A stretch of 64,000 nucleotides of DNA, taken from positions 2,336 to 66,335 of the forward strand of contig CALHZK010000011.1 in NCBI GenBank assembly GCA_938040655.1, read 5' to 3'. Origin of the DNA: an uncultured Candidatus Saccharibacteria bacterium. Lineage in GTDB: Bacteria > Patescibacteriota > Saccharimonadia > Saccharimonadales > Saccharimonadaceae. The notes beneath the pieces are model-generated. The model did not search any database, was not told where the DNA came from, and was given only the letters and a program-made list of their open reading frames with translations. Shown piece by piece: positions 32,273-52,657 of this stretch; the stretch's first letter is position 1; every line of letters begins with the position of its first letter. A program made the translations under genes and the position numbers.

Positions 32273-32317
32273 AACCTGCGAAAAACATGGGTAAAATTTG
32301 TCGAAAGGTTTGGCAGT

Positions 32318-32525
32318 GTATCCACTGCCGGCTCATAATGAATCGGCACGATTTATAGGCCGTGGACAACCCGCCGACTATCCACTCAAATTCCCCGATC
32401 CATCCACTGACCTATCCACAGCAACCACTCCGACACTACCCCTGATAAATCAGGACTTTTACCCAGTTTACACAACACTTATTATTATCAAGACAAAAGA
32501 AATATAAAAAGGTATAATAGATATT
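32318..32525. other. candidate oriC core: DnaA boxes plus AT-rich unwinding region in the dnaA-dnaN spacer
   Basis: Four same-orientation (T/C)ATCCAC boxes at 32318-32326, 32378-32386, 32400-32408 and 32412-32420, plus a reverse TTGTCCACG at 32361-32369. A roughly 70-nt AT-rich tract (32455-32525) follows. Confidence 0.65.
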
Positions 32526-34379: not shown

Positions 34380-34380
34380 G

Positions 34381-35847: not shown

Positions 35848-36296
35848 GGGTTACTCCTCCTCTGTCGTTTGGCATCGACGGACTTACTATTGAGCGTATA
35901 GGTGATAGTGTACGTAGTATCGCCAATGGTGACGCGAAAGGACTGAGTGTCACCAAGCGTATCTGTTGACAGATCAGAAATCGCCCCGTTGATAAACTCG
36001 GGCGTTTGTTTGTGGTCTGTCGTATAATCATCAAGCAGTGAATTAACCAGGTGGTTTTGCGTTTCGGTATCCATAGTTGTAGATAGCGAGCGGCCCTGGT
36101 TATCTTGGGTATCCCAGCCAGATAATACAAGTGTTTTTTCCTCTGGTGAGCCAGCACCGCCAGTTGGGCCGGTATAGTTGTCGTTACCTCGGAATGGATT
36201 GAACATGAAGATAATCACCGCCACGATCAACACCAATAATACTACAGTGCTTATGATGATAACTGCTCGTCGATGTGTGCGTAAAAACTGCTGCAT
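35844..36296 (-). CDS. small bitopic membrane protein of the T4SS-like operon
   Basis: 150 aa with an N-terminal TM segment. It overlaps both neighbours, by 1 nt upstream and 4 nt downstream. Confidence 0.5.
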   Translation of the reverse strand: MQQFLRTHRRAVIIISTVVLLVLIVAVIIFMFNPFRGNDNYTGPTGGAGSPEEKTLVLSGWDTQDNQGRSLSTTMDTETQNHLVNSLLDDYTTDHKQTPEFINGAISDLSTDTLGDTQSFRVTIGDTTYTITYTLNSKSVDAKRQRRSNP

Positions 36297-39200
36297 TAGT
36301 TTGCCCTCTTAACGATCCACATACCACGGGTACCGCTATCCTGGCCAAAATAGAATTGGCCTGGTTTAAACCCTTCATCGCTGGTGGTGCGTTTGCGGCT
36401 GGCTGGGTCGCCGACCAAGAAATTGCCGTCGCTGGTCTTGCCACGAATCACCAGGATGTGCCCGCCGTTGGTGAACGGTGTTTTTTGCCTGACTGATATC
36501 AACACCAGCCCACCCTGGTCAAGGCCGCGAGTCGCATTGTCGGCACTTGGCTGAACTTTCTCAAAGGTGACACCATAATTATTTTTGAAATAATGGCTTT
36601 GGTCTTGCCAGATCCACTTTGAGCCACAATCTGGTAACTGCCCCTTTAGCTGGACAAAGGTATCAGCCATTTGCTTTGGTGTGACCTTTTTATCAGGGTT
36701 GAGCGCGCTGATGATACTGGCAACTGATGTCGGGCCACAGCCGCATTCATTGATCGAGCCAGAGCCGTAGCGCTGTGACTTCCATGGATCTTCTACCTGG
36801 TAGTACATACTTTCTTTAAGGTTTGATGGATTGCCCGGTGTACCGGATTGAGGTGTTGTTTGCTCATCGCCTTCTTCGTCTTCACCGTTGGTCGACTGGG
36901 CAATTTGGAAATCAACCAAGAAAACAGACATAGCCGAGACCGCCCGAGCGTCTTTCAATTTTTCAGGGTTTTTGAGCGGTGCATCATTTTCGCCGGCGCC
37001 ATCTTTGAGAGTGTCGCTACTACAGACGCTCTTACCCTCGCCCTTGTTGACGCACTCAGTTTTGACCTTTCGCTTCAAGAGGTCATTTGAGCCGTCGTCG
37101 ACCATACAGCCAGCGGCGCTGAACAGATAGTCACCGCTACTGGCATCGCTACAACTGGTGATGTAATCAGCCAGTGGCGAGTCTTCCTTGATATAACTAC
37201 CGATCAGCTCATCAACCGTCGCACCATCTGGCACGTCGGCGTCAGGATTAATCCACCCTTCACGTGCCAATATATCGATCGCTTCCTCGGTGCTCATCGC
37301 ATCTTGACCAGGGGTGATACCAGTACACGGGAGGCCTGCCATGTTGATACCTGGGGTCGCATCGCGGCCATCGACGACCGTCTCGAGGCCAAAGTTGCTG
37401 GCGTAATTACAGTATTGCTGGTTAAAGCCAACCGCTGCACCGGCGGTCGACGGCGATAATGCCATCGCCGGCAAACGGAAGAGGTTGCTGGCCATCGACG
37501 CCAACGATGTATTGTAGGTGCCGCTAGCCAACATCGTATTTTGCATCGATGAGACAATACTCCCCAAAAATGTGTATTGGCTTGAGGTGTCAAACGGACT
37601 CAGTGAGGCAATATCCATCTCGCGCTGGAACTTCTCGTTCTCGGCCTTGATATTGTTGAAGGCCTTGACATCATTGCGCCGCAGCACTGGGATGTGCCGA
37701 GCCATGCTGCCAGAAGAGAAGAAGGCAGCGGCTGAAGTACCTAAGACATCCCCTAGCTCACGGCCGCGGGCCTTTGGTAGGTCATCATTTTTGGCGATTT
37801 CGGTGATAGCCTTTTCGACTGTCTCACCCAGCAGGTCCTTCGTAATTTCGCCGACAATCTCTGACACTACCCAGTTAGCGATTAACCCAAGCAGCCCACC
37901 GGTCGCCACACTCGCCACGACCGAGGCGGTCATCGCTGAATACATAGCAGCGGGGCTGAGGATCGCATTACACTCGGTCTCGCTGGCATCGGTGACTTTC
38001 TTTGAGGCTTTGACTAGCTTATTGTTGAGTGCACCATTACCAGGGGCATATTTTTTTGACAGGCCGACTTTACCTTTGTTGACGCCGATTGCTGCTAGCA
38101 AAATCGCTGAATCAAGTGCCGAACCAACATTGCCATCATTATCTTTGGTCCGCTCAGTTAGTATGTTTCCTGCTGCCTCGGCATCTTTCGCGCTGAAACC
38201 GCTGCCGTCGCCAGCCGCCTTCGCCTTAGACCCTGGTGACAAGATAAAGTCCATCACAAACGGCATAAGTTGCGCGAGCTGAACTGCCGCCACCCCAGCG
38301 GCAATATATTGCGGTAGCTTTGCAGCGGTACAACTTGATGCAGCGATAAAGTAAGCTGTACCACCTTTCTTCAGCTTCCCTAAATTCGCCTCAACCTTGC
38401 TCTTGACCTTGCCGGTGATACCAGAGGCTTTTTCGCTCAGTTTTGGTATACTTTCTTTGTATTTAGCCAGGCGTTCCTTGGCCGAGCCCTTGAGTTTCGA
38501 TAATGCATTGCCATTGCGGTTTAAACGAAATACGTTGTAGAATTTCTTCTTGATATATTTACCGCGCCAGGCTCGAAACCGCATATTAAAGGCGCCGGCT
38601 CGCCCCAACACCTTGGCGGCCAGCTCTCGATTCTCTGACTGGGTCAGATAGCCGGTCAGATCCTTGGCCTTGACATTAATTGGCGGCTTGCCATCGCCCT
38701 TGTCGATAGTATAAAACGCAGGGTTCTTCTCTGGGTAGCCGATTCGCTTGGTATCCATTCGCTCGCCGTTTGCAGTATGAGCGACCACACCCTTTTTGGA
38801 TAATTTGCGTAGGGCATGGTTGGAAATTCGGCCCATTTTACACTTAACCTTATGAGCTTTACAGAGGTCAGGGTTGGTCATGTGCTTGAACACTCGCATA
38901 AATCGGCGCTCCATGACCGGGCTCGCGGAGTCATTGTGAAGATTGAGATTACTCGTCAGGCCAATCAGCATAGTGAAAAAGGCGAACGTTCCGCCCAAGA
39001 AGGTGGCGCCAAAGCCAAATATCGCCAGCCCGCCGAGTATCCCACCTCGTTTCTTGAGAGTAGAGGTAATTTTGTTCTGTTTTTTTGACTGACGTGGTGA
39101 ATAGAGATTCTGAGCGGTATTTTCTCGCTGCTTGAGGGTGTCTTGAGCGGTTTGGTCGGGAGATTGACTCCGGGCGTTGTCGTCACGATAGCCTGCCTCG

Positions 39201-39322
39201 ATCTGATCCCACTGGGCCTGCTCACGGGCGTCGAGCGGTTTATCAGTATACATGTCTGAAGAAGGATCGGCCGGATTAAGCCGGTCGTCTGCTCTGTCAT
39301 CCGTTTTATAACTCAACGCCAT
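36296..39322 (-). CDS. 1008-aa membrane protein with C-terminal papain-fold (peptidase C39-like) domain
   Basis: Several TM segments (around residues 95-125, 330-360 and 470-500). The C-terminal 170 aa contain NECGCGPTSVASII and GGHILVIRG, the Cys and His motifs of C39-like peptidases. Confidence 0.6.
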   Translation of the reverse strand: MALSYKTDDRADDRLNPADPSSDMYTDKPLDAREQAQWDQIEAGYRDDNARSQSPDQTAQDTLKQRENTAQNLYSPRQSKKQNKITSTLKKRGGILGGLAIFGFGATFLGGTFAFFTMLIGLTSNLNLHNDSASPVMERRFMRVFKHMTNPDLCKAHKVKCKMGRISNHALRKLSKKGVVAHTANGERMDTKRIGYPEKNPAFYTIDKGDGKPPINVKAKDLTGYLTQSENRELAAKVLGRAGAFNMRFRAWRGKYIKKKFYNVFRLNRNGNALSKLKGSAKERLAKYKESIPKLSEKASGITGKVKSKVEANLGKLKKGGTAYFIAASSCTAAKLPQYIAAGVAAVQLAQLMPFVMDFILSPGSKAKAAGDGSGFSAKDAEAAGNILTERTKDNDGNVGSALDSAILLAAIGVNKGKVGLSKKYAPGNGALNNKLVKASKKVTDASETECNAILSPAAMYSAMTASVVASVATGGLLGLIANWVVSEIVGEITKDLLGETVEKAITEIAKNDDLPKARGRELGDVLGTSAAAFFSSGSMARHIPVLRRNDVKAFNNIKAENEKFQREMDIASLSPFDTSSQYTFLGSIVSSMQNTMLASGTYNTSLASMASNLFRLPAMALSPSTAGAAVGFNQQYCNYASNFGLETVVDGRDATPGINMAGLPCTGITPGQDAMSTEEAIDILAREGWINPDADVPDGATVDELIGSYIKEDSPLADYITSCSDASSGDYLFSAAGCMVDDGSNDLLKRKVKTECVNKGEGKSVCSSDTLKDGAGENDAPLKNPEKLKDARAVSAMSVFLVDFQIAQSTNGEDEEGDEQTTPQSGTPGNPSNLKESMYYQVEDPWKSQRYGSGSINECGCGPTSVASIISALNPDKKVTPKQMADTFVQLKGQLPDCGSKWIWQDQSHYFKNNYGVTFEKVQPSADNATRGLDQGGLVLISVRQKTPFTNGGHILVIRGKTSDGNFLVGDPASRKRTTSDEGFKPGQFYFGQDSGTRGMWIVKRAN

Positions 39323-39347
39323 AACGCTATATTCCTATTATACTCTA

Positions 39348-41207
39348 CTACACCCCTCCATAGCCACCAATTGGTGTTTCTGACGGCATCGCTTGGTTGT
39401 AGGCGGGTGAGGTGTTGATTAGGTTGTATTCAGTATCGCTGGCCTGAATCTGAATATGGACATGGTTTTGCCCAGCAAAGAACAGCCCCTGCCCGACTGG
39501 GAAGTTGGCGAGTCGCTTTTGCTCTTCTTCGGTCAGCTTAAAGACGCTCGATAGCACATCGACTGCGGTGGTCGACTGTTTCAAGAGTAGCTGCATTGAC
39601 GAGTTAGCGACGATCGCGCGGCCCATTTTGCTGCCCATAAAGTCTTCGACATCCTGAGTAATGGTCGTCAGGCCCAACTGGTATTTACGGGCGCGCTTGG
39701 CGAGCGAGAAGAGGAAGTTAGCCGAGTCGTCGTAGCGCATCAACTGCCACGCCTCATCGACGATCAGCATCCGCTTTTTTTGGTCTGTGCGGGTAATATT
39801 CCAAATATGATTCAGCACGATATACATGGCGGTCGGCCGCAGTTCGTCTTCTAGGTCACGGATATTAAACACAACCATGTTGTTATTGATGTCAATATTG
39901 CTCTGCTGAGAGAAGATACCGGCAAAGGTTCCAGAGGTAAATTTACGCAGTCGCTGAGCTAGGCTTGGCCCGGTGCCACCCATATGAAGTAGTGTGTCAT
40001 ACAAATCAGAAATTGTCGGTGGCGTCGAGTTATGAGTCAGCGGATCAGAGGTAATCCCAACCCGAGCGTATGTATCAATCAACGCTTGGTCGATATCAGC
40101 CTCCTCAGCCGCTGTCAAGCCGGCAACAAGCTGGCCACTTGAGGTGACCTGTGAACCCCCAAGCATTTGCCGCAGTAGCCCGTGAAGGGTCACCAAATTT
40201 GCTCGCAAAGCATCATCAGCCTCTTCGGTATCGATCACTCGAGGGAGATCAAATGGGTTAATACGGGTGTCGCTATTGAGACTCAGGCGAATATAACTAC
40301 CACCAACCGCATCACACAGCCGTTGATACTCGTTTTCTGGGTCAATGATGACAATATCAGCACCTGTCATCATGCTGCGCAGCGCCTCAAGCTTCACGGT
40401 GAATGATTTACCAGCACCAGATTTTGCGAATACCACCATATTAGCATTCTCAAGTGAAAACCGGTCAAAAATCACCAGGCCATTATTGTGCATGTTGATG
40501 CCATAGAGAACTCCTTTGCCATCAGTCAAGTCAGCTGAGGTGAAAGGAAATGAAGTAGAGATCGCTCCAGTGTTCATGTTGCGACGGATCTGCAACTGGT
40601 CGGTCAGCTGAGGGATCGTGCTATTCAACCCCTGCTCTTGCTGGCTCGACGCCACCTTGCTAAAGATCAGTTGCTGGCCAAAAATCGTCTCAATCTTGTG
40701 CTGGATAAAGTTGAGCTCGTCAATACTATCAGCATACAGCGTAATATACAGGCCATAGCGGAAGAATTTCTCGGCACCGATCTGTAGTTGATTACGCAGT
40801 TCTTCAGCATCCTGTAGCGCCGCTTCCATGCCAGGGTCACGGACACGGCCCTTCTCGGCGTTGATGTTGAGGCTTGCCTCTAGCTGAGTAACCTTTTTGC
40901 GCAAATTATTCAAAACAGTCTGAGTGTCGACCGGGTAAATAAACATGCTAATATCAAGCACTTCATCGATATTGATCACTGAGCTTAGCCAGCCGGTATA
41001 TATCTCACGCGGGTAGCCATAGACATACATGGTGCGGCCATATTTGCTACCGAGGCGAAAATGGCTAGAATGTAGCTCAATGCTACTAGGAGCAATAAAG
41101 TCGCGCAGCGTTCGTACACCGGTCAAAAACGCTTGCTCAACTTCAGCTTGCTCGCGTGCTCGTTGCTGTGCGGCGATATCTACCGCATCCATCTTCTTTC
41201 GTGCCAT
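39348..41207 (-). CDS. virB4: VirB4/TrsE-family type IV secretion ATPase
   Basis: Walker A KSGAGKSFT, Walker B LIVDEAWQL (the DEAW motif typical of VirB4), and an N-terminal region laid out as in monoderm VirB4 proteins. Confidence 0.85.
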   Translation of the reverse strand: MARKKMDAVDIAAQQRAREQAEVEQAFLTGVRTLRDFIAPSSIELHSSHFRLGSKYGRTMYVYGYPREIYTGWLSSVINIDEVLDISMFIYPVDTQTVLNNLRKKVTQLEASLNINAEKGRVRDPGMEAALQDAEELRNQLQIGAEKFFRYGLYITLYADSIDELNFIQHKIETIFGQQLIFSKVASSQQEQGLNSTIPQLTDQLQIRRNMNTGAISTSFPFTSADLTDGKGVLYGINMHNNGLVIFDRFSLENANMVVFAKSGAGKSFTVKLEALRSMMTGADIVIIDPENEYQRLCDAVGGSYIRLSLNSDTRINPFDLPRVIDTEEADDALRANLVTLHGLLRQMLGGSQVTSSGQLVAGLTAAEEADIDQALIDTYARVGITSDPLTHNSTPPTISDLYDTLLHMGGTGPSLAQRLRKFTSGTFAGIFSQQSNIDINNNMVVFNIRDLEDELRPTAMYIVLNHIWNITRTDQKKRMLIVDEAWQLMRYDDSANFLFSLAKRARKYQLGLTTITQDVEDFMGSKMGRAIVANSSMQLLLKQSTTAVDVLSSVFKLTEEEQKRLANFPVGQGLFFAGQNHVHIQIQASDTEYNLINTSPAYNQAMPSETPIGGYGGV

Positions 41208-42127
41208 TATTGCTGCTCCTTCCCGTATGGTGATTGCCCAGTACCCTTGCGGACATAGGTTGATGTCAGATCACTCGGGTTGATAGACATTGGCTCACGT
41301 GGTGCGGTATCAGGGTTGTACGAGGTATAAAATAGCTCACCAAGCTGTTTGGTGCTGAGCTGGCTGCTCTTGATGCCCATCTGAAACAGACCGCTCATCA
41401 CTGAGTCGATACGGTTTTTTATCTCATCTTTGGCTTTTTCGTAGGTGACTTGGTCGACTCGGGTGACTGTGGTTTCTTTCTTCCCGCTGAAGAAACTGTC
41501 GAATAACCCCTTAGCCTGCTGCTTGATAACGTTGAGATCGCCTGTCGGATAATACGGTACGACGATATAAAAACTTTTATCCATAATGTTAGCTTCTTGC
41601 GCCAGAATATCGATAAAGTTCATATAGTCATCAATCAGCACATTCAGCAGCATATTATCTTGCCCCCGGCGAATTGCCGCCAAGCGATCAAGGTACGGCC
41701 CGATATCAACCCGGCGCGACCGGACCAACACCTGCACCGGAAAATACAATGAATTTAAGAAGTTCTGGTAGCTATATTCAATACCCTCACGCTCTCGCGA
41801 GCTCATCAAGTCGAAGTTGATGGATTCGCACTCGACCACCGCGCGAAAACTACCATCATTCATGACGATCATATTCTCGCGCATCTCAGAAAATAATAGC
41901 GAATTTTGAGTAGTGATGGGCCCCTTTTGTTTTTTGTCAGCCTCCTCAGTCGACTGATTTGGTTGATTGACTGGTGGCTGGCCTGGTAGCTGATCGTTTT
42001 GCTGATCCCCGGTTGGATACTGGGGCTGAGGCTGCTGTGGCTGACCCGGCATCAAACGAGCATCAGCTGCCGACATAACCGGCAGTTGCTCGCGACCATA
42101 GAGTGATTGCTGATTCGTAGGTTGCAT
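41207..42127 (-). CDS. hypothetical protein with Gln/Pro-rich N-terminus, translationally coupled to virB4
   Basis: 306 aa. Its TAA stop and the virB4 ATG share one nucleotide (TAATG). The globular part loosely echoes the layout of the VirB4 N-domain but has no P-loop. Confidence 0.5.
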   Translation of the reverse strand: MQPTNQQSLYGREQLPVMSAADARLMPGQPQQPQPQYPTGDQQNDQLPGQPPVNQPNQSTEEADKKQKGPITTQNSLLFSEMRENMIVMNDGSFRAVVECESINFDLMSSREREGIEYSYQNFLNSLYFPVQVLVRSRRVDIGPYLDRLAAIRRGQDNMLLNVLIDDYMNFIDILAQEANIMDKSFYIVVPYYPTGDLNVIKQQAKGLFDSFFSGKKETTVTRVDQVTYEKAKDEIKNRIDSVMSGLFQMGIKSSQLSTKQLGELFYTSYNPDTAPREPMSINPSDLTSTYVRKGTGQSPYGKEQQ

Positions 42128-42136
42128 AAGCGTTAT

Positions 42137-43048
42137 TTATCGTAATGGAATTACGATCTCGTCCTCCTCTTTTTTGATGCGCTTCGCCTCTCGCTGGAGC
42201 GACTCAACCGAGCGATCGCTGTGATTGCGTGCTAAATCCATTATAGCAGGTGAAACAGCTTGTTGACGAATAGATTTTTGATTACCTGGCCGAATATCAC
42301 TGATAGGCTGCAAAACAGCTTGCCGCATTGTTGGGTATGGGTCTATCTGCAATTTTGGCTCTGGCTCCTCTGTTGTGGCTGGCTGGCTCGACTTCTTTGG
42401 CGCACTGGCCTGGCGATTGTCAGCTACGTTTGGCTGCGGTTGAGGTGTGCCTGCACTACTACCGTGCTTCATCTTCTCGATCATCTCTTGCCGGCGCTTC
42501 ATGTCAGCCTTGTTGATCAGGCTATCGATCTGCCGCGATGTCGAGTTATTATCGTCCAGCATGTCATTGACGTTTTGTGCCTCATTATAAATCTCCACCT
42601 GCATCGAACTATTCGGGCTGTTGACGCCTCGCACCGACCACCCTCGACTATCAACCAGATTTGCCAAGTAGGACAACCGCCGCTGCACTTCTGCCTGGTC
42701 ATACCCCTTACCGTACTGGCGCTCCTCAACCTTCGGCGCAACCACCTCGACCATCGTCTCGATACCGTCAGAGTACCACAACCGCCGTTTTGGCTTGACG
42801 ATGAAGGAAATCACCGCTGCGAGATACACCTCCATCGGCTGATCTTTGCGAAGTGGGAGTGCCAACGCGGCAAAAAACAGCGCAATCGGCAGCGGGATAA
42901 TCGCCAGTGGCAAAAATATCTGAGATAGCATATAAGCAAGCCCAAGCATCATCACCATGATGAGCAAGAAAATAAACTGCTTGAAGCTAAACGGCCCTAA
43001 TAGCTTATCGTCCGCTTCGACGTCTTGAGGAACTTTGTATACAGCCAT
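42137..43048 (-). CDS. PrgI-family (VirB3-like) membrane protein with long C-terminal extension
   Basis: The N-terminus MAVYKVPQDVEADDKLLGPFSFKQFIFLL plus two TM helices matches the PrgI/TcpE-type pattern. It sits two genes upstream of virB4. Confidence 0.55.
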   Translation of the reverse strand: MAVYKVPQDVEADDKLLGPFSFKQFIFLLIMVMMLGLAYMLSQIFLPLAIIPLPIALFFAALALPLRKDQPMEVYLAAVISFIVKPKRRLWYSDGIETMVEVVAPKVEERQYGKGYDQAEVQRRLSYLANLVDSRGWSVRGVNSPNSSMQVEIYNEAQNVNDMLDDNNSTSRQIDSLINKADMKRRQEMIEKMKHGSSAGTPQPQPNVADNRQASAPKKSSQPATTEEPEPKLQIDPYPTMRQAVLQPISDIRPGNQKSIRQQAVSPAIMDLARNHSDRSVESLQREAKRIKKEEDEIVIPLR

Positions 43049-43055
43049 TAGTTTT

Positions 43056-43082
43056 ATTATAGCAAAATAAAATTATAAGCAA
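43056..43082 (-). promoter_or_regulatory. extended -10 promoter immediately upstream of the PrgI-like gene (near-leaderless mRNA)
   Basis: The minus strand reads TTGCTT-15 nt-TGCTATAAT. The TATAAT (43056-43061) ends 7 nt before the ATG at 43048, and no Shine-Dalgarno sequence is present. Confidence 0.45.
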
Positions 43083-43115
43083 TTAATATAAAAGCGAATT
43101 TTGATTGATTGGGAG

Positions 43116-45980
43116 CTAATTTTTTCTATTATTTTTAGCTCCTTGTACAGACTTGAGACCCTTATCGATATTTGATTTTTGTTGATCTTCACTTCCTCTA
43201 ATAATCGCTTGGAATTTTTGTCGTTTATCATAACTTATTTCGCCTTGCAGATCAGCGGCAGACAGAACCGCTCGAGCTTGATCGACTGATATATAGTCTG
43301 ATTTTATATTATCACTAATTTGCTGAATAAGTTGTTCAGGGCTAAGCTTGCTGAATGCTTTTCTCATAGCGGCCTTGTCTGAACGTATTTGATCAAGAGT
43401 TTTACCATCTGGATTGTTGTAAATCCACTCGTCGACTGTAACGTCATTATTTTTGAGACCTTTCGCCATACCAGCTTCTTGTTTCACAGCTTCCATTACT
43501 GTTGGATTTGAAAGAGACTCTATATTTATTGTCTCATTAGTTCCTGCAAAAGTAAAACTTTCATCTCCACTACCTATCGCTCGGACAACACTATTGAACG
43601 CATCTTTTCCTGGTTTACCAGTCTTATCGGTTAATAGCTGAGTAGCAGCACGAGCCTTAATAGTATCTCCACTACGTGTTGCTTCAACAAGCGCTTTTTG
43701 GAGACGCCCAAGCTTTTGACTCTCAGGTACCCCTTGTACCAATCCGGCCATAGACTGCTCGACCATCTCCTCTTCCTCACGACGGACAATGCTTTGACCT
43801 ATAGCGGTAGATCTGTTAGCAAAGTTTCGAGCCGATGGAAGATGGCTTGCTACCCTATTAAAACCGCGGCTTGAGGCAGATTTTATATTTCGTGGGTTGA
43901 ATATACCACCTCTTCCACGATATGTACCGGCTTTGATTTGCTCATCTCGAAGTTTACGCTGCTGTTTCATATGTTGACCAAGCCGGCCAAGGCGTGAATT
44001 TTCTCCACGATTACGTGCCCAATTATCTAGCTTACCGCCAATACCACTGACAGCAGCGCCGAATCGACCAGTCGCATTTAGTGCTGACTTCAACAGAGGT
44101 AGTGTTGCAAATAATGGAGCAGTCCTCACCACAAGAGCAACTATATCGCCAAAATTCTTCTCAAGTGAGCTTTGAATAATGAATGCAGCCAGGCCGGACG
44201 CACCATACAAAACGCCAATAATAGGGTACAGCACCAAAAGCGAGAAGAACAAACTTTTCCATTTCTGGAATAACTTCTCGGTATTAGGTAGTAAATAGGC
44301 AGCAAAAGCTACTGGCGATATTGCGATGAGCAGCACAATAAGAGCTTGTCGCCCGATGAGAATTAATGTAATAAACAAGACGGCCATCAATCCCATTGGT
44401 AGCGCAATACCAAGCAGCGCCAATGCGGCAAACAATGCTGCTCCTGCCAAGGCTAAGACGGTGCCGACTGATGCTGCTGTTTGAAATGCAGATATCTGAC
44501 CACCACTCTCAATACTATTAACCCCACCGCCGATTTCAATACCATGGCTAAAGAAGCCATGGAGGTTTTTGCCTAGGATATTTGATACATCAACGGCTAT
44601 CTGACAAAGATAAATTGATATATTAACTAGCAGAGCTATCACTATGAGCCGAGGTAGCATTTTCTTGATACCATAATTACTAATACCAAGGTTTGTGATT
44701 TGAGAATAAATTATTATGATAAAGGCTATAACAAATAAACCATTGGCAATATTACGAAAACTGTCCCAGGCTGTTTTTAGGTTTGAGTCGGCTGTAATCT
44801 TTGGTTGCACTTGAAGGAAATTATCACCAATAAAATTAAAGGCGCCATCCATCAATTTACCCATATAAAGCATAAGTGGACAGATGATATATCCGACACC
44901 CTCTACGTTACAGGTGGTACCATTATTTTCATCGTCTTTTTTATTCTCTGACTTTGATTCTGGATTAATATTAGTCTTTTCTGCATTAAGACCTGCTTCA
45001 CAGGCAGCCTTTTCGTTGCCCGACTTAGAATTACAAATATTTTTGTTTTGAGAACTGTAACCCTGCTTACAGGATTCGAGGTCCTTTCCGGAGAACTTCT
45101 TTTCCGAGCAGAACTTTTCTGCACCTTCTTTTAACATAGCATCTAGATAGCCTTGGGCTGATCTATTAACTTTTTTTGCTGCATCAAAACAACCTATCGA
45201 ATTATTTACGGTGTCTGTATAAATCTCACGATCATAGGGATAAGCATAGTAATTACCATTATCTTTTGACTTCAAAGAGTAATATTTTTTGACTACCTTG
45301 TTACCGTCAACAGCATCAAATGATAAACGAGACTTGGTGTTACTCTTGTCAAACTCATCTTTCGACATAAGTTTACCTGTTGTACAGCCGTTGACGACAA
45401 TACTATGCCATTTGGTGTACTGAACTACAGGGTCTTTCTCGGCTAAAGCGTGGTCATATTTGGTTAATTTTTTCAGAGCATTAAAAAACTTCTGCTTTCG
45501 GTTGTTGGTGTTTTCTTGTGCAAAAGGCTTATCTGAAGAAAAGCAGCCAGCGCCTCCTTCTCTTGTGTAGCCCATGTTACAAAGCAGATCGACTCCATTA
45601 ATACCAAATCGTTGCATTGCTGCTTTTGCAAACTCATTAGAACCGTTATTGCATCCAAGTGTACGAGGAGGGTCTCCCGCTATAAAGGTAGAGTACGTAG
45701 ATATATAACCACCACCACCGTTAAAGAGGTTATTCCCTTTTAGCTTTTCTTCATCGGTGTGATTCCTCATTGCTGTTGCAAAACAATCACCCAGAACACT
45801 GGCATACTCATGAAACCAATACTTATCGTTTGGATTTAAACCATTGTAGTTTGTTTCTGCGCGCGAAGGGGTCGACTGCAGCAAACTGACAACTGGCGAG
45901 ATTAGCAAACCAAGAATAACCACAAACAAGACAAAGTTTTTCTTGAGACTCTTCTTTTGTTGCGTAAGACTAAAAAGCAT
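43116..45980 (-). CDS. 954-aa VirB6/TrbL-like polytopic protein with Cys-rich external N-domain and long cytoplasmic tail
   Basis: Signal peptide, a roughly 370-aa Cys-rich domain, then 6 or so TM helices (residues about 400-640), then a basic/charged tail. The coding sequence is markedly AT-rich. Confidence 0.5.
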   Translation of the reverse strand: MLFSLTQQKKSLKKNFVLFVVILGLLISPVVSLLQSTPSRAETNYNGLNPNDKYWFHEYASVLGDCFATAMRNHTDEEKLKGNNLFNGGGGYISTYSTFIAGDPPRTLGCNNGSNEFAKAAMQRFGINGVDLLCNMGYTREGGAGCFSSDKPFAQENTNNRKQKFFNALKKLTKYDHALAEKDPVVQYTKWHSIVVNGCTTGKLMSKDEFDKSNTKSRLSFDAVDGNKVVKKYYSLKSKDNGNYYAYPYDREIYTDTVNNSIGCFDAAKKVNRSAQGYLDAMLKEGAEKFCSEKKFSGKDLESCKQGYSSQNKNICNSKSGNEKAACEAGLNAEKTNINPESKSENKKDDENNGTTCNVEGVGYIICPLMLYMGKLMDGAFNFIGDNFLQVQPKITADSNLKTAWDSFRNIANGLFVIAFIIIIYSQITNLGISNYGIKKMLPRLIVIALLVNISIYLCQIAVDVSNILGKNLHGFFSHGIEIGGGVNSIESGGQISAFQTAASVGTVLALAGAALFAALALLGIALPMGLMAVLFITLILIGRQALIVLLIAISPVAFAAYLLPNTEKLFQKWKSLFFSLLVLYPIIGVLYGASGLAAFIIQSSLEKNFGDIVALVVRTAPLFATLPLLKSALNATGRFGAAVSGIGGKLDNWARNRGENSRLGRLGQHMKQQRKLRDEQIKAGTYRGRGGIFNPRNIKSASSRGFNRVASHLPSARNFANRSTAIGQSIVRREEEEMVEQSMAGLVQGVPESQKLGRLQKALVEATRSGDTIKARAATQLLTDKTGKPGKDAFNSVVRAIGSGDESFTFAGTNETINIESLSNPTVMEAVKQEAGMAKGLKNNDVTVDEWIYNNPDGKTLDQIRSDKAAMRKAFSKLSPEQLIQQISDNIKSDYISVDQARAVLSAADLQGEISYDKRQKFQAIIRGSEDQQKSNIDKGLKSVQGAKNNRKN

Positions 45981-46033
45981 AAGTACCCCTATTTAATCAC
46001 ATATAGGGGTACTTAGACAAGAAGATAATTTAT

Positions 46034-47287
46034 CTACAGTCTTGGGTCTTGTACAGGTTGTGCAGATACTAGATCTGGGTCTTTGTTTACACCGTCCTCG
46101 CTTGTCGGCAGAGCTACCTCTAATCTATATACACGACCATCACCAAGCTGTACAATGATAATGATGTGAGGAGTCTCTTTCTGTGAAGGCCCGTAAGGCT
46201 TTTGTTCTTCTTCTGTGCTAATAATAGTATATTCATGGAATCTACTACCTTCAGGTACATTTTTTGTATCTTCGGGGCATATTGCACTACGAACACCACC
46301 GTCTAATGTAGGATCTTTATCAAGCCTGTTCCCTTTGTTGTTTACCTCCTGCGTAACTTCACGTACCAATAGAAACCCAGCATCACTAGAAATACCATAG
46401 AAATACTTGGTTGCCCTGCTATCGTCTAGCTCGTTGTTGCAGCCAGGGGTTTCTTGGTTTTCCTTCTGTAGTGATGCCGCAAACCATACACTTCGATCAA
46501 GATCCTTCAAAACTTTATCGGCGATAGTATTCAGGGAGTCATTTGGTGAGATTCTGACTTCTTCGTCAGAGGATAAGTTTGCCCCAACCTTATTAGCTCT
46601 TTCTATGAACTCCTTTCTCATTTTTGCATTCATAACCCAATCACGCCATTTCGCTCTTGCTTCATGAGATTGACTGTTATAGTTGGCTCTGTCGCTTCCT
46701 CCTACCTTCACTGACATACCCTCTAGACTTGTCACAGTTCCTAGAGGCATTGGCTCTCGATATGAATCAAGGCTTTTATGTACTGTTGCGGTTTCGCCGC
46801 CTGGTGTAGGATAGTCGGTCGATGCTGCATCAGGGCTCTCGGTTGAGTCCGCAGAGTCTTCTGGAGACGTTGTAGTTTCCTCTGGGTATGGGCTAGGACT
46901 GAATTCTGTGGTAGTTGTATCCCCTCCTGTTGGTGTCGCCTCACCATTAGCTTGTTCTGTCATACAGCGTGTTATACCTACAAAGCCTGCAAGGGCAAGG
47001 GCAACTGCTGCTAATCCCTTGAAAGCCCCCTTCTTTATAGCTTCACCAGCTGTTCCTTGTTTTCCTTTCCAGAAGTCCCAAGGTTTTTTATCTGGCTGGT
47101 CGCTCCCTGTTTCTGGCGGTGTAAATGTATCTGACGACTGTTTCTCTTGATCACTTGGGTTGTTGTCTGGGTCGTAAGACTTTGACCCTTTTTCTATCTC
47201 AGACATAACGCTTGGGATCCTTTCTCCGGCTGGCCGGATTTGCAATATTTGCCGTAAATTTAGGTACGGGTCGCGTATTGACCCCAA
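46034..47287 (-). CDS. bitopic hypothetical protein with acidic Thr/Ser/Pro-rich stalk
   Basis: The track start is a TTG at 47287, and the ATG at 47206 (MSEIEKG) is equally plausible. It has a single TM segment, an acidic linker and an external globular domain. Confidence 0.5.
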   Translation of the reverse strand: MGSIRDPYLNLRQILQIRPAGERIPSVMSEIEKGSKSYDPDNNPSDQEKQSSDTFTPPETGSDQPDKKPWDFWKGKQGTAGEAIKKGAFKGLAAVALALAGFVGITRCMTEQANGEATPTGGDTTTTEFSPSPYPEETTTSPEDSADSTESPDAASTDYPTPGGETATVHKSLDSYREPMPLGTVTSLEGMSVKVGGSDRANYNSQSHEARAKWRDWVMNAKMRKEFIERANKVGANLSSDEEVRISPNDSLNTIADKVLKDLDRSVWFAASLQKENQETPGCNNELDDSRATKYFYGISSDAGFLLVREVTQEVNNKGNRLDKDPTLDGGVRSAICPEDTKNVPEGSRFHEYTIISTEEEQKPYGPSQKETPHIIIIVQLGDGRVYRLEVALPTSEDGVNKDPDLVSAQPVQDPRL

Positions 47288-47330
47288 TACGGCAGTCAGA
47301 TAATACCATGATTATGAATATGATGCAAAC

Positions 47331-47358
47331 AAAAAACCGCCCTCACGAAAAACGGCGG
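47331..47358 (-). terminator. short GC hairpin plus T-run after tRNA-Asp
   Basis: The minus strand reads CCGCC-12 nt-GGCGG followed by TTTTTTGTTT. Confidence 0.45.
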
Positions 47359-47365
47359 ATAATTA

Positions 47366-47443
47366 TGGCGCGCCCGACCGGATTCGAACCGGCGATCTCC
47401 TCCGTGACAGGGAGGCGTGATAGGCCAACTTCACTACGAGCGC
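47366..47443 (-). tRNA. tRNA-Asp (anticodon GTC), CCA encoded
   Basis: Reverse-complement cloverleaf with acceptor GCGCTCG/CGGGCGC, anticodon stem CCTCC/GGAGG with loop CTGTCAC, and T-loop GGTTCGAATCC. Confidence 0.9.
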
Positions 47444-47492
47444 AAACTACCTCGTATGGTAGCAGAATAGCGGCTGTTTTTCAAGGGAGTGT

Positions 47493-47521
47493 TTGCATTT
47501 TTGTCGCCACTATTTTACAAT
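47493..47521 (+). promoter_or_regulatory. sigma70-type promoter for the pilin-like gene array
   Basis: TTGCAT (47493-47498), a 17-nt spacer, then TACAAT (47516-47521), 18 nt before the ATG at 47540. Confidence 0.55.
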
Positions 47522-47539
47522 TCTGACTAGAGAAAGCTC

Positions 47540-47920
47540 ATGAAAAAAAGAAAGAATAGTCATTTTCTGTATCCGCTTGTTTTTTGCCTATCGGTGGCTG
47601 GGTTTGGTTTGTTTCAGGCAAGGCCAGCCGTGGCGGCTTCTTGCGGCGGGGTACAGACTACAATAGTGAACTGCGAAGGCAAAGGTAAAGACGCGCTTCT
47701 CGATATTATCAAAACAGCCATTAAGCTTTTAACTGCCGGTATCGGTATTCTGGCTGTCGGTGCGGTAGTGTTTGGTGGTATTTTGTACTCATCGGCCGGT
47801 GGATCGGTTGATAATATTCGGCGGGCAAAAAATATTTGGATCAATACAGCAATTGGGCTGATTCTTTTCGCGTCTTTCGTGACTGTTACAAATTTTCTTA
47901 TTCCAGGGGGGATATTTTGA
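47540..47920 (+). CDS. VirB2/TrbC-like T4SS pilin candidate, paralog 1
   Basis: Signal peptide, a Cys pair, then two hydrophobic helices joined by the polar loop GGILYSSAGGSVDNIRRAKN. Confidence 0.6.
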   Translation: MKKRKNSHFLYPLVFCLSVAGFGLFQARPAVAASCGGVQTTIVNCEGKGKDALLDIIKTAIKLLTAGIGILAVGAVVFGGILYSSAGGSVDNIRRAKNIWINTAIGLILFASFVTVTNFLIPGGIF

Positions 47921-48345
47921 TGATCAAGCGCTATATAGTTGCGACGATGGTAATGATTTCGGTAATTACAGGCTCAGCACTGATGGTTTCGCCCTCGGCC
48001 CAGGCGGCGGCAAACTGTCCGAGTGGGCGTATTCTGACGCTGAAGCCGTGGTACGATGGCCTGCTTGACAACAGTTGTGTTGTCAAGAGTCCTGGGACAA
48101 CAACTGAGGAACACTCCAAATTTATTTGGACAATCGTCCTTAATGTAATTGATGATTTGTTTCAGGTTATTGGCTATATTGCGACTGGATTTATTATCTA
48201 CGGTGGCTTTTTATTCATGACAACCAGTGGCGATCCGGCGAGGGCTGCCCAGGCGAGGAAGACACTTCTCTATGCGGTGATTGGTGTGGTGATTGCTATT
48301 GCCTCGGTTGGGGTGATTAATCTTGTGTCAGGGGCGGTCTTATGA
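47920..48345 (+). CDS. VirB2/TrbC-like T4SS pilin candidate, paralog 2
   Basis: Start taken at ATG 47920, which overlaps the upstream TGA by 1 nt. Signal peptide, a Cys pair, and the loop GGFLFMTTSGDPARAAQARK between two TM helices. Confidence 0.6.
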   Translation: MIKRYIVATMVMISVITGSALMVSPSAQAAANCPSGRILTLKPWYDGLLDNSCVVKSPGTTTEEHSKFIWTIVLNVIDDLFQVIGYIATGFIIYGGFLFMTTSGDPARAAQARKTLLYAVIGVVIAIASVGVINLVSGAVL

Positions 48346-48647
48346 TGGTCGCATATATTTATTATATTTCGGCTCAGTTGTTTAAAGGAACAAAACCGGA
48401 TGATCTAGGGATTCCGGCTGAAAAAAATGTCAATTCACAGGTAGCAAGTATCCTCAACCTCGTGTATGCGATCGCTGGTATTGTTGCAGTGATTGTTATT
48501 ATTATTGCAGGTATTCAATATTCCCTGTCGACTGGTAATTCTCAGAAGGTATCGAAAGCAAAGGACGCGATAATTTATTCGATGGTTGGTCTGGTTGTTG
48601 TCGCCAGCGCTTTTGCTATCACCAACTTTATTTTAGGGAGGATATAA
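48342..48647 (+). CDS. VirB2/TrbC-like pilin candidate, paralog 3 (no obvious signal peptide)
   Basis: ATGA overlap with the upstream gene. The loop AGIQYSLSTGNSQKVSKAKD lies between two TM helices. Confidence 0.55.
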   Translation: MMVAYIYYISAQLFKGTKPDDLGIPAEKNVNSQVASILNLVYAIAGIVAVIVIIIAGIQYSLSTGNSQKVSKAKDAIIYSMVGLVVVASAFAITNFILGRI

Positions 48648-48652
48648 TCACG

Positions 48653-49066
48653 ATGAAGAGATTTTTTGTTGCTATTGCTGCGGTCGTCTACGGCATAAGC
48701 GTGCTGGCGGGGCCATCAGCCGGCGCCGTCAGTATCTATAAAGCTTGCACCGGTAATGATAACAGTACAGTCTGCGCCAGCCGGGGTGATAATGTATACA
48801 ATGTGATCCGCAACGTCATCAATGTATTGCTGGCACTGGTTGGTATCATCGCGGTGATTATGATTATCATTGGCGGTATCAAGTATGTGACCTCAAACGG
48901 TGACCCGCAATCAGTCAAGTCCGCTAAAGACACCGTACTCTACGCAGTGATTGGTTTAGTGGTGGCGATTTGTGCGCTGGCGATTGTCAACTTTACGGTC
49001 GATCGATTCCTCAAAAGGTCAGCCCCGTCGCAGCGGCCGGCTCCAGAGGGCCGACCACGCGTCTGA
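48653..49066 (+). CDS. VirB2/TrbC-like T4SS pilin candidate, paralog 4
   Basis: GGGAGG Shine-Dalgarno sequence, a signal peptide, a Cys pair, the loop GGIKYVTSNGDPQSVKSAKD, and a basic Pro-rich tail. Confidence 0.6.
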   Translation: MKRFFVAIAAVVYGISVLAGPSAGAVSIYKACTGNDNSTVCASRGDNVYNVIRNVINVLLALVGIIAVIMIIIGGIKYVTSNGDPQSVKSAKDTVLYAVIGLVVAICALAIVNFTVDRFLKRSAPSQRPAPEGRPRV

Positions 49067-49091
49067 TAGCGTAGTCAAATCAAACAACTCG

Positions 49092-49100
49092 TGCTATAAT
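49092..49100 (+). promoter_or_regulatory. extended -10 element (TGCTATAAT) ahead of pilin paralog 5
   Basis: A perfect TGnTATAAT lies in the 78-nt gap between paralogs 4 and 5. The -35 region is only weak. Confidence 0.45.
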
Positions 49101-49144
49101 GGCGCTAAACAATAGTTTTTGTGAAGAAAGGACATATAGGAAAT

Positions 49145-49546
49145 ATGAAACAACTAAAAACAATAGTGGCTGCAGCGCTGATTGTCCCGACGTTGGCCCT
49201 CGGACTGACGGCGGTATTGCCAGGAGCAAATGTGAGTGCGCAATCAAACGGCAAAGGACTCAATGAATATAGAGATGTTGCAAAGCCTAACGATGTTCCT
49301 ACCGACCTCGCTGGTAAAGGAGGTGTGATTACACAGGTTATTAACTTCTTATTGTTTGCAATTGGCATTATATCAGTGGTCATGATTATTATTGGCGGTA
49401 TTCGCTATACAACCTCAAATGGTGATAGCAACAAAGTGACGGCCGCCAAAAACACCGTCATGTACGCAGTGATCGGTTTGGTGATCGCTATCTTTGCCTA
49501 TGCGATCGTCAACTTCGTGGTAGAAAAAGCATCAACTAATAGCTAA
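49145..49546 (+). CDS. VirB2/TrbC-like T4SS pilin candidate, paralog 5
   Basis: Start taken at ATG 49145 (the track GTG at 49121 is possible). Signal peptide and the loop GGIRYTTSNGDSNKVTAAKN between two TM helices. Confidence 0.6.
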   Translation: MKQLKTIVAAALIVPTLALGLTAVLPGANVSAQSNGKGLNEYRDVAKPNDVPTDLAGKGGVITQVINFLLFAIGIISVVMIIIGGIRYTTSNGDSNKVTAAKNTVMYAVIGLVIAIFAYAIVNFVVEKASTNS

Positions 49547-49568
49547 AGCAATCACTCTAAAAACCTTC

Positions 49569-49600
49569 TACACCCCGCGCGTATCGCGGGGTGTATTTAT
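49569..49600. terminator. strong bidirectional rho-independent terminator
   Basis: Perfect 11-bp stem tacaccccgcg/cgcggggtgta (49569-49579 and 49585-49595) with a 5-nt loop, then TTTAT. It lies between the convergent pilin-5 and hsp20 genes. Confidence 0.8.
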
Positions 49601-49685
49601 CTGGTATTTCTCTGGCAGGTAGATAAAGAGGATATAAAAAAGAAGAGCCGCCCGTTGCTCTCTTCTTTTCTCTTTAGGATAAAAT

Positions 49686-50204
49686 TTACAGTACTTGGAT
49701 CTTTTTCGCTTTTTCTTGCTTGATCTTTTCGAAGGTGATAGTGAGGACACCGTCTTTCAACTCAGCCTTGATATCGTCTTCACCGTCTTTGACAGCTACT
49801 GGTAGTGCGAGTGTCCGACTAAATTCACCCCAGTAGCATTCTTGGATATGCCAGTTTTTCACCTCGGTCTCGTCACCGCTCGAGAGAGTGCCGCTGATAG
49901 TCAAAATACCATCAGAGATTCGCACATCTAAATCTTTGCGGTCAACACCAGCGGTACGTGCTTTGACAATTAGTTCTTCTTCGGTTTCAAACACATCAAC
50001 CGCCAACTGCCCCATCAGATCATCAGCCTCATTTTCCCAGTTGTCTTCGGCCGGCGCCGGCGCAGGAGCAGCGGCTGGTATTTGAGTTGGTGCGACCGGT
50101 GCGACGGGCGCCATCGGTGCTTGGGGTGCTGGTGCCAAATCATCGTCCAAAAAGGCTGCTGCTAACTCATCTTCCATTAATAAATCATCATTCTTACGGG
50201 CCAT
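49686..50204 (-). CDS. Hsp20/alpha-crystallin family small heat-shock protein with Ala/Pro-rich N-region
   Basis: C-terminal alpha-crystallin domain (DV.ETEEELIVKA..PGV...L.V.I.DG.LTISG...). Start taken at ATG 50204, which is preceded by GGAGGAAAGC. Confidence 0.85.
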   Translation of the reverse strand: MARKNDDLLMEDELAAAFLDDDLAPAPQAPMAPVAPVAPTQIPAAAPAPAPAEDNWENEADDLMGQLAVDVFETEEELIVKARTAGVDRKDLDVRISDGILTISGTLSSGDETEVKNWHIQECYWGEFSRTLALPVAVKDGEDDIKAELKDGVLTITFEKIKQEKAKKIQVL

Positions 50205-51722: not shown

Positions 51723-52220
51723 CTAGAGCTTGATCATCCGCAGCAACTTCTCGATAGCATCTGGCTTGATCTGCTGCATCGGCAGGCGGTTACCGATCAT
51801 GTCAACAATCTTTTCGCCGTCGGTCTCAGAAAAATACAAGGTTAATCCAGGAGCAAACCGTTTGACTGGCAGCAACAAAACCGAGGGCTGGCGATGCTCT
51901 GCGATGACACCAAAGCCACGAAACTCGCTAAATAAATGAAACTGATCCCCTACGAAAATCCCCTCGTGATTGATGGTGTAATGGATCATTCGCGGTGGTT
52001 TGGAGATGAGAAGGATAATCGATAGCGCCATCACCGGTATCAAAACAGCAAAAGTGGTGCTCTTGAATACAAATATCGCTATCGCTACCAGGGCGACTGT
52101 GATGACGATAAACCAGCTATACCAGATAAAACCACGCTCTTCCTGTAGTCCTTCAGGGGCTGTCCAGCTCAGGGGCTGCGCTGCATCAAAACCAGTGATG
52201 TGTGAGCGCTGATCGTCCAT
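51723..52220 (-). CDS. two-TM membrane protein with small cytoplasmic beta-rich domain (bacterial PH-like is a guess)
   Basis: 165 aa with two adjacent TM helices followed by a roughly 80-aa soluble domain. Confidence 0.45.
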   Translation of the reverse strand: MDDQRSHITGFDAAQPLSWTAPEGLQEERGFIWYSWFIVITVALVAIAIFVFKSTTFAVLIPVMALSIILLISKPPRMIHYTINHEGIFVGDQFHLFSEFRGFGVIAEHRQPSVLLLPVKRFAPGLTLYFSETDGEKIVDMIGNRLPMQQIKPDAIEKLLRMIKL

Positions 52221-52249: not shown

Positions 52250-52657
52250 CTATACATCAGTGCCGTTGCCGCCACCATTAAGCGCCACGCTCAGGACAAA
52301 CTGAATGATCGCATAGGCAAAGATTGCCACCAACAAACCAACAATTGCATATAGGATAGTGTTCTTGGCAGCGCTGACTTTGTCGTTTTGACCACCAGAG
52401 ATGATGTAGCGGAACCCACCCATGATCAGCATGACCACACTAAGGACACCGATACCATAGAGCATCAAGTTAATGATTTTGCTGACAATTGAGCCGTCGC
52501 CATTGGCGAAGTTAGTCGGTACCCCTGCGCCCTTTGCTGCCTCGATGCCGCCAGTCGCACCGTTTTCGCCAAGCGCCAACGTCGGCAGACTGACAATCGC
52601 TGCGGCTAGAACTGCTGCGACACTTATACTAATACATACACCAAAGATTTTTCTCAT
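52250..52657 (-). CDS. VirB2/TrbC-like pilin candidate, paralog 6 (orphan copy)
   Basis: Signal peptide, a Gly-rich variable part, and the loop GGFRYIISGGQNDKVSAAKN between two TM helices. The second helix LVAIFAYAI is identical to that of paralog 5. Confidence 0.6.
   Translation of the reverse strand: MRKIFGVCISISVAAVLAAAIVSLPTLALGENGATGGIEAAKGAGVPTNFANGDGSIVSKIINLMLYGIGVLSVVMLIMGGFRYIISGGQNDKVSAAKNTILYAIVGLLVAIFAYAIIQFVLSVALNGGGNGTDV

Follow-up and report, generated by a model that had tools for sequence, protein, structure and literature searches.

The DNA considered here, called the window throughout, is a stretch of 64,000 nucleotides from an uncultured Candidatus Saccharibacteria bacterium (contig CALHZK010000011.1, positions 2,336 to 66,335, forward strand). 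It carries an array of five consecutive small genes for VirB2-like pilins of a type IV secretion system (T4SS), named P1 to P5, and a solitary sixth copy, P6, on the opposite strand. A preliminary description, made from the sequence alone, had read the array as five consecutive, divergent VirB2/TrbC-like paralogs with a sixth copy nearby. The genes and the signals predicted around them, with bit scores against the hidden Markov models (HMMs) PF18895 (T4SS_pilin) and PF04956 (TrbC/VirB2), are as follows.

47492-47521, plus strand: predicted promoter upstream of P1 (TTTGCA-18-TACAAT), 9/12 consensus match, weaker than the P5 site
47540-47920, plus strand: P1, VirB2-like T4SS pilin, 126 amino acids; PF18895 34.3 bits; leader, Cys pair, two transmembrane (TM) helices
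47920-48345, plus strand: P2, VirB2-like pilin, 141 amino acids from ATG; PF18895 43.2 bits; longest variable segment
48342-48647, plus strand: P3, short leaderless VirB2-like pilin, 101 amino acids; PF18895 52.2 bits, TrbC 24.5 bits
48653-49066, plus strand: P4, VirB2-like pilin, 137 amino acids; PF18895 58.7 bits, TrbC 28.6 bits; short Pro/Arg-rich C-terminal tail
49072-49100, plus strand: predicted internal promoter of the extended -10 type ahead of P5 (TAGTCA-17-TGCTATAAT, with TGCTATAAT at 49092-49100); 10/12 consensus plus TG, top-scoring site of the region
49145-49546, plus strand: P5, VirB2-like pilin, 133 amino acids from ATG; PF18895 39.0 bits; leader, no Cys
49569-49595, both strands: predicted hairpin terminator, bidirectional, at the end of both the array and the convergent hsp20 gene; 11-bp stem with 8 GC pairs, then the T-rich tail TTTAT
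52250-52657, minus strand: P6, solitary sixth VirB2-like pilin, 135 amino acids; PF18895 30.1 bits

The first four genes had been described as translationally coupled, and their junctions agree with this: P1 and P2 have 1 nt in common at the P1 stop codon (TGATG), P2 and P3 overlap by the 4 nt ATGA, and a gap of 5 nt separates P3 from P4. Shine-Dalgarno-like purine runs lie within the 3' ends of P1, P2, and P3, which fits such coupling. P4 and P5 are separated by a 78-nt spacer containing TAGTCA-17-TGCTATAAT, so that the element assigned earlier to the fifth gene is indeed present and is the best promoter-like match of the region. The site at 47492-47521 is a candidate promoter for a transcript of P1 to P4, possibly extending into P5. 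As for translation starts, P2 could also begin with TTG at 47917 or with an upstream TTG at 47836, and the 141-residue form is the gene call in related contigs. An alternative GTG start at 49121 would give a P5 of 141 residues; however, because the 133-residue form is the one called in related contigs and exactly this protein is found in a public protein collection, ATG at 49145 is the likely start. Directly downstream of P6, on the same strand, a 165-residue membrane protein is encoded (51723-52220) that is 98% identical in all strains compared below. As a candidate seventh pilin it was rejected, since it shows 8% identity, does not align, and has no Pfam hit.

All six paralogs are members of the T4SS_pilin family, a relative of TrbC/VirB2. 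Every one exceeds the gathering score of PF18895 (26.6 bits), with 30-59 bits and E values from 5e-7 to 6e-16, and P4 (28.6 bits) also passes that of PF04956 (27.9 bits), below which P3 (24.5 bits) and P5 (19.3 bits) give sub-threshold matches; the HMM comparison thus supports both the five-paralog reading and the sixth copy. The same signature extends to relatives. All 88 sampled homologues match PF18895, and 62 of the 88 also reach E<=1e-3 with TrbC. When the public protein collection was searched with a profile, at least 1723 relatives were returned; the best 120 all carry PF18895 and many also PF04956, and the sources of a few of these label them 'pilin' or 'Type IV secretion system pilin'. 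In addition, P3 (45.8 bits) and P4 (41.3 bits) lie above the 40-bit cut-off of NCBIfam NF045849, the 'Mbov_0395 family pilin-like conjugal transfer protein' of integrative and conjugative elements (ICEs) in Mycoplasma, and P2, P5, and P6 match it below the cut-off. This match suggests the presence of VirB2-like pilins in monoderm MPF-FATA systems. A 2025 survey by Quinonero-Coronel et al. described the Gram-positive T4SS classes as being without VirB2-like pilins (PMC12102498). If the NF045849 match is taken up, such pilins would be ancestral to monoderm MPF-FATA rather than borrowed from diderms, a point that the survey left open.

Hydropathy profiles show three hydrophobic segments, corresponding to a leader and two TM helices, in P1, P2, P4, P5, and P6, but only two in P3, which also lacks a charged n-region. 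This matches the original view that paralog 3 alone is leaderless, and five of the six proteins carry what are predicted to be leaders of the Sec/signal peptidase I type. Candidate (-3,-1) cleavage sites are AVA|A near residue 32 in P1, AQA|A in P2, AGA|V in P4, and VSA|Q in P5. The class III signal peptide with the prepilin peptidase site G|F/M-x-x-x-E occurs in none of the six sequences. Type IV pilus pilins were accordingly rejected as an identity for these proteins, which lack the prepilin motif and have two C-terminal TM helices instead of one at the N-terminus.

The mature parts consist, by hydropathy, of 25-55 variable residues and the two TM helices. All six are predicted to form a two-helix hydrophobic hairpin whose helices are joined by a conserved, polar, Lys-containing loop, and the hairpin topology first proposed is found again in an AlphaFold2 model of P4 built from an 88-sequence alignment, with helices at residues 48-80 and 85-120 (pLDDT, the predicted local distance difference test score, of 83-93). 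Some finer details held only in part. Cys pairs in the variable segment, described as frequent, are confined to P1 (C35/C45), P2 (C33/C53), and P4 (C32/C41) and are missing from P3, P5, and P6. The loop motif GG(I/F)xYxxSxG(D/N)...(A/S)AK holds as a consensus but not strictly, as, beyond the initiator Met, only five columns (four Gly, one Ala) are invariant in all six paralogs. The ending (V/I)NF of the second helix is found in three of six proteins, the other three having TNF, INL, or IQF. Pairwise identity among the six is 19-49%, with a mean of 30%.

This architecture bears on an earlier view of comparable genes, put forward by McLean et al. (2020), in which they would encode Sec-exported effector or toxin subunits released by the T4SS in the manner of pertussis toxin (ptx/ptl). 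The layout is similar, in that T4SS genes are accompanied by four to six small genes whose products have signal peptides (PMC7427843), and transcriptome papers on strain TM7x still use the label 'putative effectors'. However, the proteins have no soluble catalytic domain and comprise, besides the leader and a pair of hydrophobic helices, little more than a short variable segment; all of them match pilin HMMs, and the reported identity to Ptx S1 is only 11% (PMC7427843). No Ptx or ADP-ribosyltransferase Pfam match was found among the paralogs. With mature proteins consisting of hardly more than a pair of TM helices, a Ptx-like effector role is in our view highly improbable.

The array keeps its order across species. 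In related species the array gene nearest the T4SS operon always matches P1 best, and the next gene matches P2 best, although these best matches are only 36-65% identical to P1 and P2, as against 85-94% for VirB4. The third gene is always 93-98 residues long, leaderless, and begins with MRYMEFFAGLLG or similar; such a third-position pilin is found at loci L005, L015, L030, L034, L050, L071, L079, and others, the N-terminus MRYMEFFAGLLG being recurrent in one clade. The absence of a leader from P3 is therefore a conserved trait and not an annotation artefact, and the retained positions together with the low identity of P1 and P2 relative to VirB4 indicate that the paralogs are ancient, fixed in order, and fast-evolving. 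Full copy numbers come from L071 (five genes) and from same-species contigs (5+1), the 10-kb flank taken around VirB4 ending within most arrays. No DNA repeats were found among the copies beyond core stretches of 64-75% identity between P3, P4, and P5, so there is no sequence basis for cassette exchange between copies, and a cassette or gene-conversion mechanism was rejected. Overall, the paralogs are old, with 19-49% identity and no DNA-level repeats, and stand in fixed order beside a PrgI/VirB4 T4SS operon.

This operon and its surroundings in the window comprise the following, the first entry giving the whole operon.

33630-47287, minus strand: monoderm-type T4SS operon of nine genes, divergent from the array
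46034-47287, minus strand: 417-residue single-TM protein at the operon head, without Pfam match
43116-45980, minus strand: 954-residue polytopic VirB6-like protein, without Pfam match
42137-43048, minus strand: PrgI/VirB3
41207-42127, minus strand: TrsD/TraC-like protein
39348-41207, minus strand: VirB4 ATPase
36296-39322, minus strand: 1008-residue protein with a C-terminal C39-like peptidase domain (residues 845-974)
34381-35847, minus strand: CHAP hydrolase
within 33630-47287, minus strand: a 150-residue protein and a 249-residue protein
47366-47443, minus strand: tRNA-Asp(GTC) gene, between the T4SS operon and the pilin array

The array had been described as facing this operon. The two are adjacent, but their orientation is divergent, head-to-head, with the tRNA-Asp gene between them. 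A 104-residue open reading frame at 47212-47526 (plus strand) overlaps the opposite-strand tRNA-Asp gene and the intergenic promoter region and is almost certainly not a gene. PrgI and VirB4 lie 4.5-8 kb from the array on the opposite strand, as they do in six strain contigs, and PrgI/VirB3 and VirB4 stand beside pilin genes in 39 of the 52 related species' genomes whose upstream flank was long enough. The case named beforehand as overturning the pilin reading, an unrelated family of small membrane proteins such as holins that occurs without T4SS genes, does not apply. The 1008-residue protein with the C39-like domain may serve to hydrolyse the wall or to process the pilins proteolytically. 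Among the nine operon proteins, none matched a coupling-protein or relaxase family (Pfam-A for all nine, NCBIfam for four).

Directly beyond the operon lie dnaA and dnaN (30905-33626, plus strand), which places the whole T4SS and pilin locus at the replication origin, and the 2025 survey reports a T4SS locus near the origin in some Patescibacteria (PMC12102498). VirB4 is 85-94% identical to homologues in Saccharibacteria metagenome-assembled genomes (MAGs) and in Nanosynbacter sp. TM7-053, and contigs from human oral metagenomes carry this locus too, with a P3 identical to that of the window. These matches point to an oral Nanosynbacter-like Saccharibacterium as the source.

Variation within the species was examined in seven strains, namely the window and six related contigs. 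VirB4, the TrsD-like protein, PrgI, ValRS, and Hsp20 are 98-100% identical among them, P3 and P6 are 100% identical, and P2 and P4 are 98% identical. P1 and P5, by contrast with these low flanking differences, each exist as two alleles. Those of P1 (126 or 133 residues) differ within the mature N-terminal segment only, and those of P5 (133 or 134 residues) differ mainly there, the divergent tract continuing to the 3' end; this concentration in the N-terminal segment is the argument for its exposure. The divergent segments cover residues ~38-68 of P1 (47640-47740) and ~34-66 of P5 (49245-49340), as seen at loci L082-L084 and L086. Here the synonymous divergence (dS) is 1.0-1.8 against 0.04-0.08 in the flanks, and the ratio of nonsynonymous to synonymous divergence (dN/dS) is 0.15-0.33, with dS saturated. 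Such high dS between low flanks indicates that the P1 and P5 alleles are old and have been moved by recombination; recent positive selection on the variable segments was rejected on these values. The proposed comparison of copy number and dN/dS recovered the five-gene and 5+1 arrays mentioned above but gave no evidence of positive selection. The two dimorphisms assort independently among the strains.

A scan of DNA identity places these alleles in a wider pattern. Against a background of 96-100%, divergent blocks appear at 47500-47750 (P1) and 49250-49750 (P5), and further ones in the 954-residue VirB6-like gene, chiefly its C-terminal end, and in the ectodomain of the 417-residue gene. Between strains the VirB6-like protein has a mean amino acid identity of 63% (minimum 35%, lengths 954-1111 residues) and the 417-residue protein one of 45% (minimum 25%, lengths 372-417 residues), and the genes around this pair are 97-100% identical. 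The variation of both is concentrated in their C-terminal parts, which are probably extracellular. A dN/dS of 1.9 for the 954-residue gene is unreliable owing to poor alignment and the dropping out of saturated pairs. The P1 and P5 alleles thus lie in a recombination mosaic that also takes in two hypervariable T4SS surface proteins.

One may ask whether the array is part of a strain-variable host-recognition module, that is, a heteropolymeric fibre with exchangeable specificity subunits. The basis for such a module would be the independently assorting old blocks (dS>=1) on the N-termini of P1 and P5, the C-terminus of the VirB6-like protein, and the 417-residue ectodomain. If it existed, the surfaces of P1, P5, the VirB6-like protein, and the 417-residue protein would jointly decide to which host strain the epibiont can attach, or on which it can feed, through the T4SS. 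We hold this only tentatively and on present evidence consider it unlikely. The dimorphism speaks to a limited extent for variable specificity or antigenicity, and for P1 and P5 only.

Divergent exposed segments, the predicted promoter of P5, and the dimorphism of P1 and P5 between strains could also mean that the paralogs are alternative major pilins used singly, through phase or antigenic variation or according to host, an idea put forward for the Bartonella Trw and Anaplasma virB2 families and, by the 2025 survey, for these arrays (PMC12102498). However, P1-P4 are translationally coupled and hence co-expressed, gene order and paralog identity are conserved across species, and neither repeats nor invertible elements were found that might serve as a switch. 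Moreover, all six array genes are essential in Southlakia epibionticum (PMC10633639). Coupling, conserved order, and the fact that S. epibionticum needs every array member make one-at-a-time use improbable. The same conserved order and essentiality instead favour non-redundant subunits, either in a heteropolymer or with specialised roles. Of the three functional ideas offered at first, the heteropolymeric fibre is accordingly the one favoured, together with specialised roles, whereas alternative specificities and antigenic diversification retain the limited support just mentioned.

Taking these results together, we consider it very likely that the window locus is the human-oral, Nanosynbacter-like counterpart of the published Patescibacteria array of VirB2-like T4SS pilins. 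The mechanism that we favour would run as follows. Sec/YidC would insert each pre-pilin into the cytoplasmic membrane, where signal peptidase I would cut the leaders at their AXA-like sites, P3 being inserted without a leader. Hairpins would thus accumulate in the membrane, their variable N-terminal segments exposed on the outside. From this pool the VirB4 ATPase, together with a VirB3/VirB6-like platform, would draw subunits and assemble them into a polymer, a fibre or conduit attached to the T4SS that crosses the wall and contacts the host bacterium. Within the fibre, as in VirB2 and TraA pili, the conserved loop would line the lumen and the variable N-termini would point outward. The paralogs would not be interchangeable cassettes but non-redundant subunits, either a shaft with base, tip, or minor subunits or a true heteropolymer. 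P1-P4 would be made in fixed ratios through translational coupling, and P5, on account of its separate predicted promoter of the extended -10 type, would be the foremost candidate for the major subunit, made in the largest amount. Recombination may swap the exposed segments of P1 and P5 between strains, probably tuning host or surface specificity.

Several points weigh against this interpretation. The PF04956 model gives no match for P1, P2, and P6. A Foldseek search of the P4 model against the PDB returned a best E value of 2.6, with no VirB2, TraA, or pilin among the 50 matches listed; those at E>2 are generic helical hairpins (the metal sensor CnrX, histidine-kinase DHp domains, and others). 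A six-paralog profile searched against PDB sequences likewise gave two chance-level matches only and no pilin. A bare helical hairpin is not discriminating, so the Foldseek result is as expected and says nothing either way on pilin identity; with both searches null, the link to solved pili comes from the HMMs only. Polar effects within a coupled operon could account for part of the essentiality that transposon sequencing (Tn-seq) assigned to upstream ML1 array genes. The assignment of major and minor roles, with P5 as the putative major subunit, derives from promoter consensus only. Finally, reviews treat a pilus or fibre of the Patescibacteria T4SS only as a possibility, none having been seen.

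This last point leads to a further reading, in which the paralogs are VirB2-like by descent but form an integral T4SS channel or short wall stalk, a fixed hetero-oligomeric ring or stalk with no extended pilus. Monoderm T4SSs are normally without pili (PMC12102498; 2025 T4SS review), no filament has been reported for Patescibacteria T4SSs, translational coupling suggests a fixed stoichiometry, and the core and loop are strongly conserved, with P2, P3, P4, and P6 under strong purifying selection between strains. However, five paralogs with long variable N-termini, Cys-bonded or strain-dimorphic, fit surface exposure better than a buried stalk, and the homology at family level is to filament-forming pilins. 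A channel or stalk is thus possible but somewhat unlikely, and we retain the fibre or conduit of non-redundant VirB2-like subunits as the preferred interpretation.

Under that interpretation, the locus encodes a T4SS with apparent pilins and without a relaxase match in a wall-bearing monoderm, a system that is essential in an obligate epibiont. This combination indicates that the T4SS may be a feeding or signalling conduit to the host bacterium. The case for a conduit is already in print (Wang 2023, PMC10633639; Quinonero-Coronel 2025, PMC12102498; 2025 FEMS review), and the array has been termed remarkable in a 2025 T4SS review, which speculates that a pilus serves as conduit. The window adds a further instance from a common human-oral lineage, whose details could guide the choice of subunits to examine for host specificity. 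The present additions are modest, namely the positional orthology including the leaderless third pilin, the dimorphism of P1 and P5, and the shared mosaic; only the last of these, a pattern among strains, might reward further study.

With respect to known systems, multi-copy VirB2-like arrays have been published for Saccharibacteria and Patescibacteria T4SS loci (PMC7427843, PMC10633639, PMC12102498, PMC12857230). Quinonero-Coronel et al. (2025) surveyed 441 arrays of 2-11 VirB2-like genes in 383 Patescibacteria assemblies, enriched in Saccharimonadia, with a mean paralog identity of 25% and a maximum of 54%, and proposed adaptation to different host strains (PMC12102498). An array was defined there as at least two pilin genes in tandem or one gene apart, with low paralog identity, in a genome with a Patescibacteria-clade VirB4 (PMC12102498). 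The window agrees with this definition, having five tandem genes of 19-49% identity and a VirB4 85-94% identical to Saccharibacteria homologues. The novelty implied by the initial remark that five pilin genes in a row are unusual is therefore not supported; the array was read correctly but is already known, having been published in 2020, 2023, and 2025.

The canonical pilins Agrobacterium VirB2 and RP4 TrbC share with the window proteins a long leader, two hydrophobic helices, a short polar loop, and a PF04956 match at or near threshold for P3-P5. They differ in being encoded by one gene per system, and P1, P2, and P6 lack the PF04956 match; nor do the window pilins match solved pilus structures in the Foldseek and PDB profile searches. 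Mbov_0395 and MMCAP2_0565 of the Mycoplasma ICEs are similar in that P3 and P4 pass NF045849 and in belonging to a monoderm T4SS with a related VirB4, but each is a single-copy gene in a conjugative element, and the relation is seen through the HMM only.

The virB2/trwL genes of the Bartonella Trw system and the virB2 family of Anaplasma phagocytophilum, for which surface variation or a wider host range has been proposed, are cited as parallels in PMC12102498. As in the window, several divergent VirB2-like genes stand in tandem in a host-associated bacterium. However, these are diderm MPF-T systems of intracellular pathogens of animals. The Bartonella Trw copies are presumably recent and similar, whereas those of the window are of ancient origin and hold a fixed order, and probably every one of them is required.

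Closer to the window is Nanosynbacter lyticus TM7x, whose 'Sec-secreted protein array' was read by McLean et al. (2020) as Ptx-like effectors (PMC7427843) and re-read by Quinonero-Coronel et al. (2025) as a VirB2 array (PMC12102498). Both are oral Saccharibacteria, with four to six small leader-bearing genes beside VirB4 and VirB6 in TM7x (PMC7427843), and paralog identity is low in both cases (published mean 25% and maximum 54%; window mean 30% and maximum 49%). The window nevertheless represents a different species, its VirB4 being ~92-94% identical to those of oral MAGs and Nanosynbacter sp. TM7-053.

The likeness to S. epibionticum ML1, which belongs to the same group at phylum level, is more detailed. 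Wang et al. (2023) described SEML1_0014-0019 on the plus strand, with PF18895 and PF04956 matches and all essential by Tn-seq, and SEML1_0024, a solitary, non-essential pilin on the opposite strand in a position equivalent to that of P6 (PMC10633639). In both genomes the pilin array lies on the strand opposite to VirB4, the TrsD-like protein, and PrgI (PMC10633639), genes 2 and 3 overlap by 4 nt, genes 3 and 4 are 5 nt apart, and the third gene is short, encoding ~100 residues. Both arrays match PF18895 and PF04956, and both are followed by hsp20 and comF and then by a separate pilin on the opposite strand. The differences are that ML1 has six array genes rather than five, that a 26-nt gap separates its genes 1 and 2 where the window has a 1-nt overlap, and that a VirB6-like gene adjoins its array where the window has the 417-residue protein and tRNA-Asp. 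By order, strand, and sizes, taken from the published gene table, the window array is the orthologue of the ML1 pilin array.

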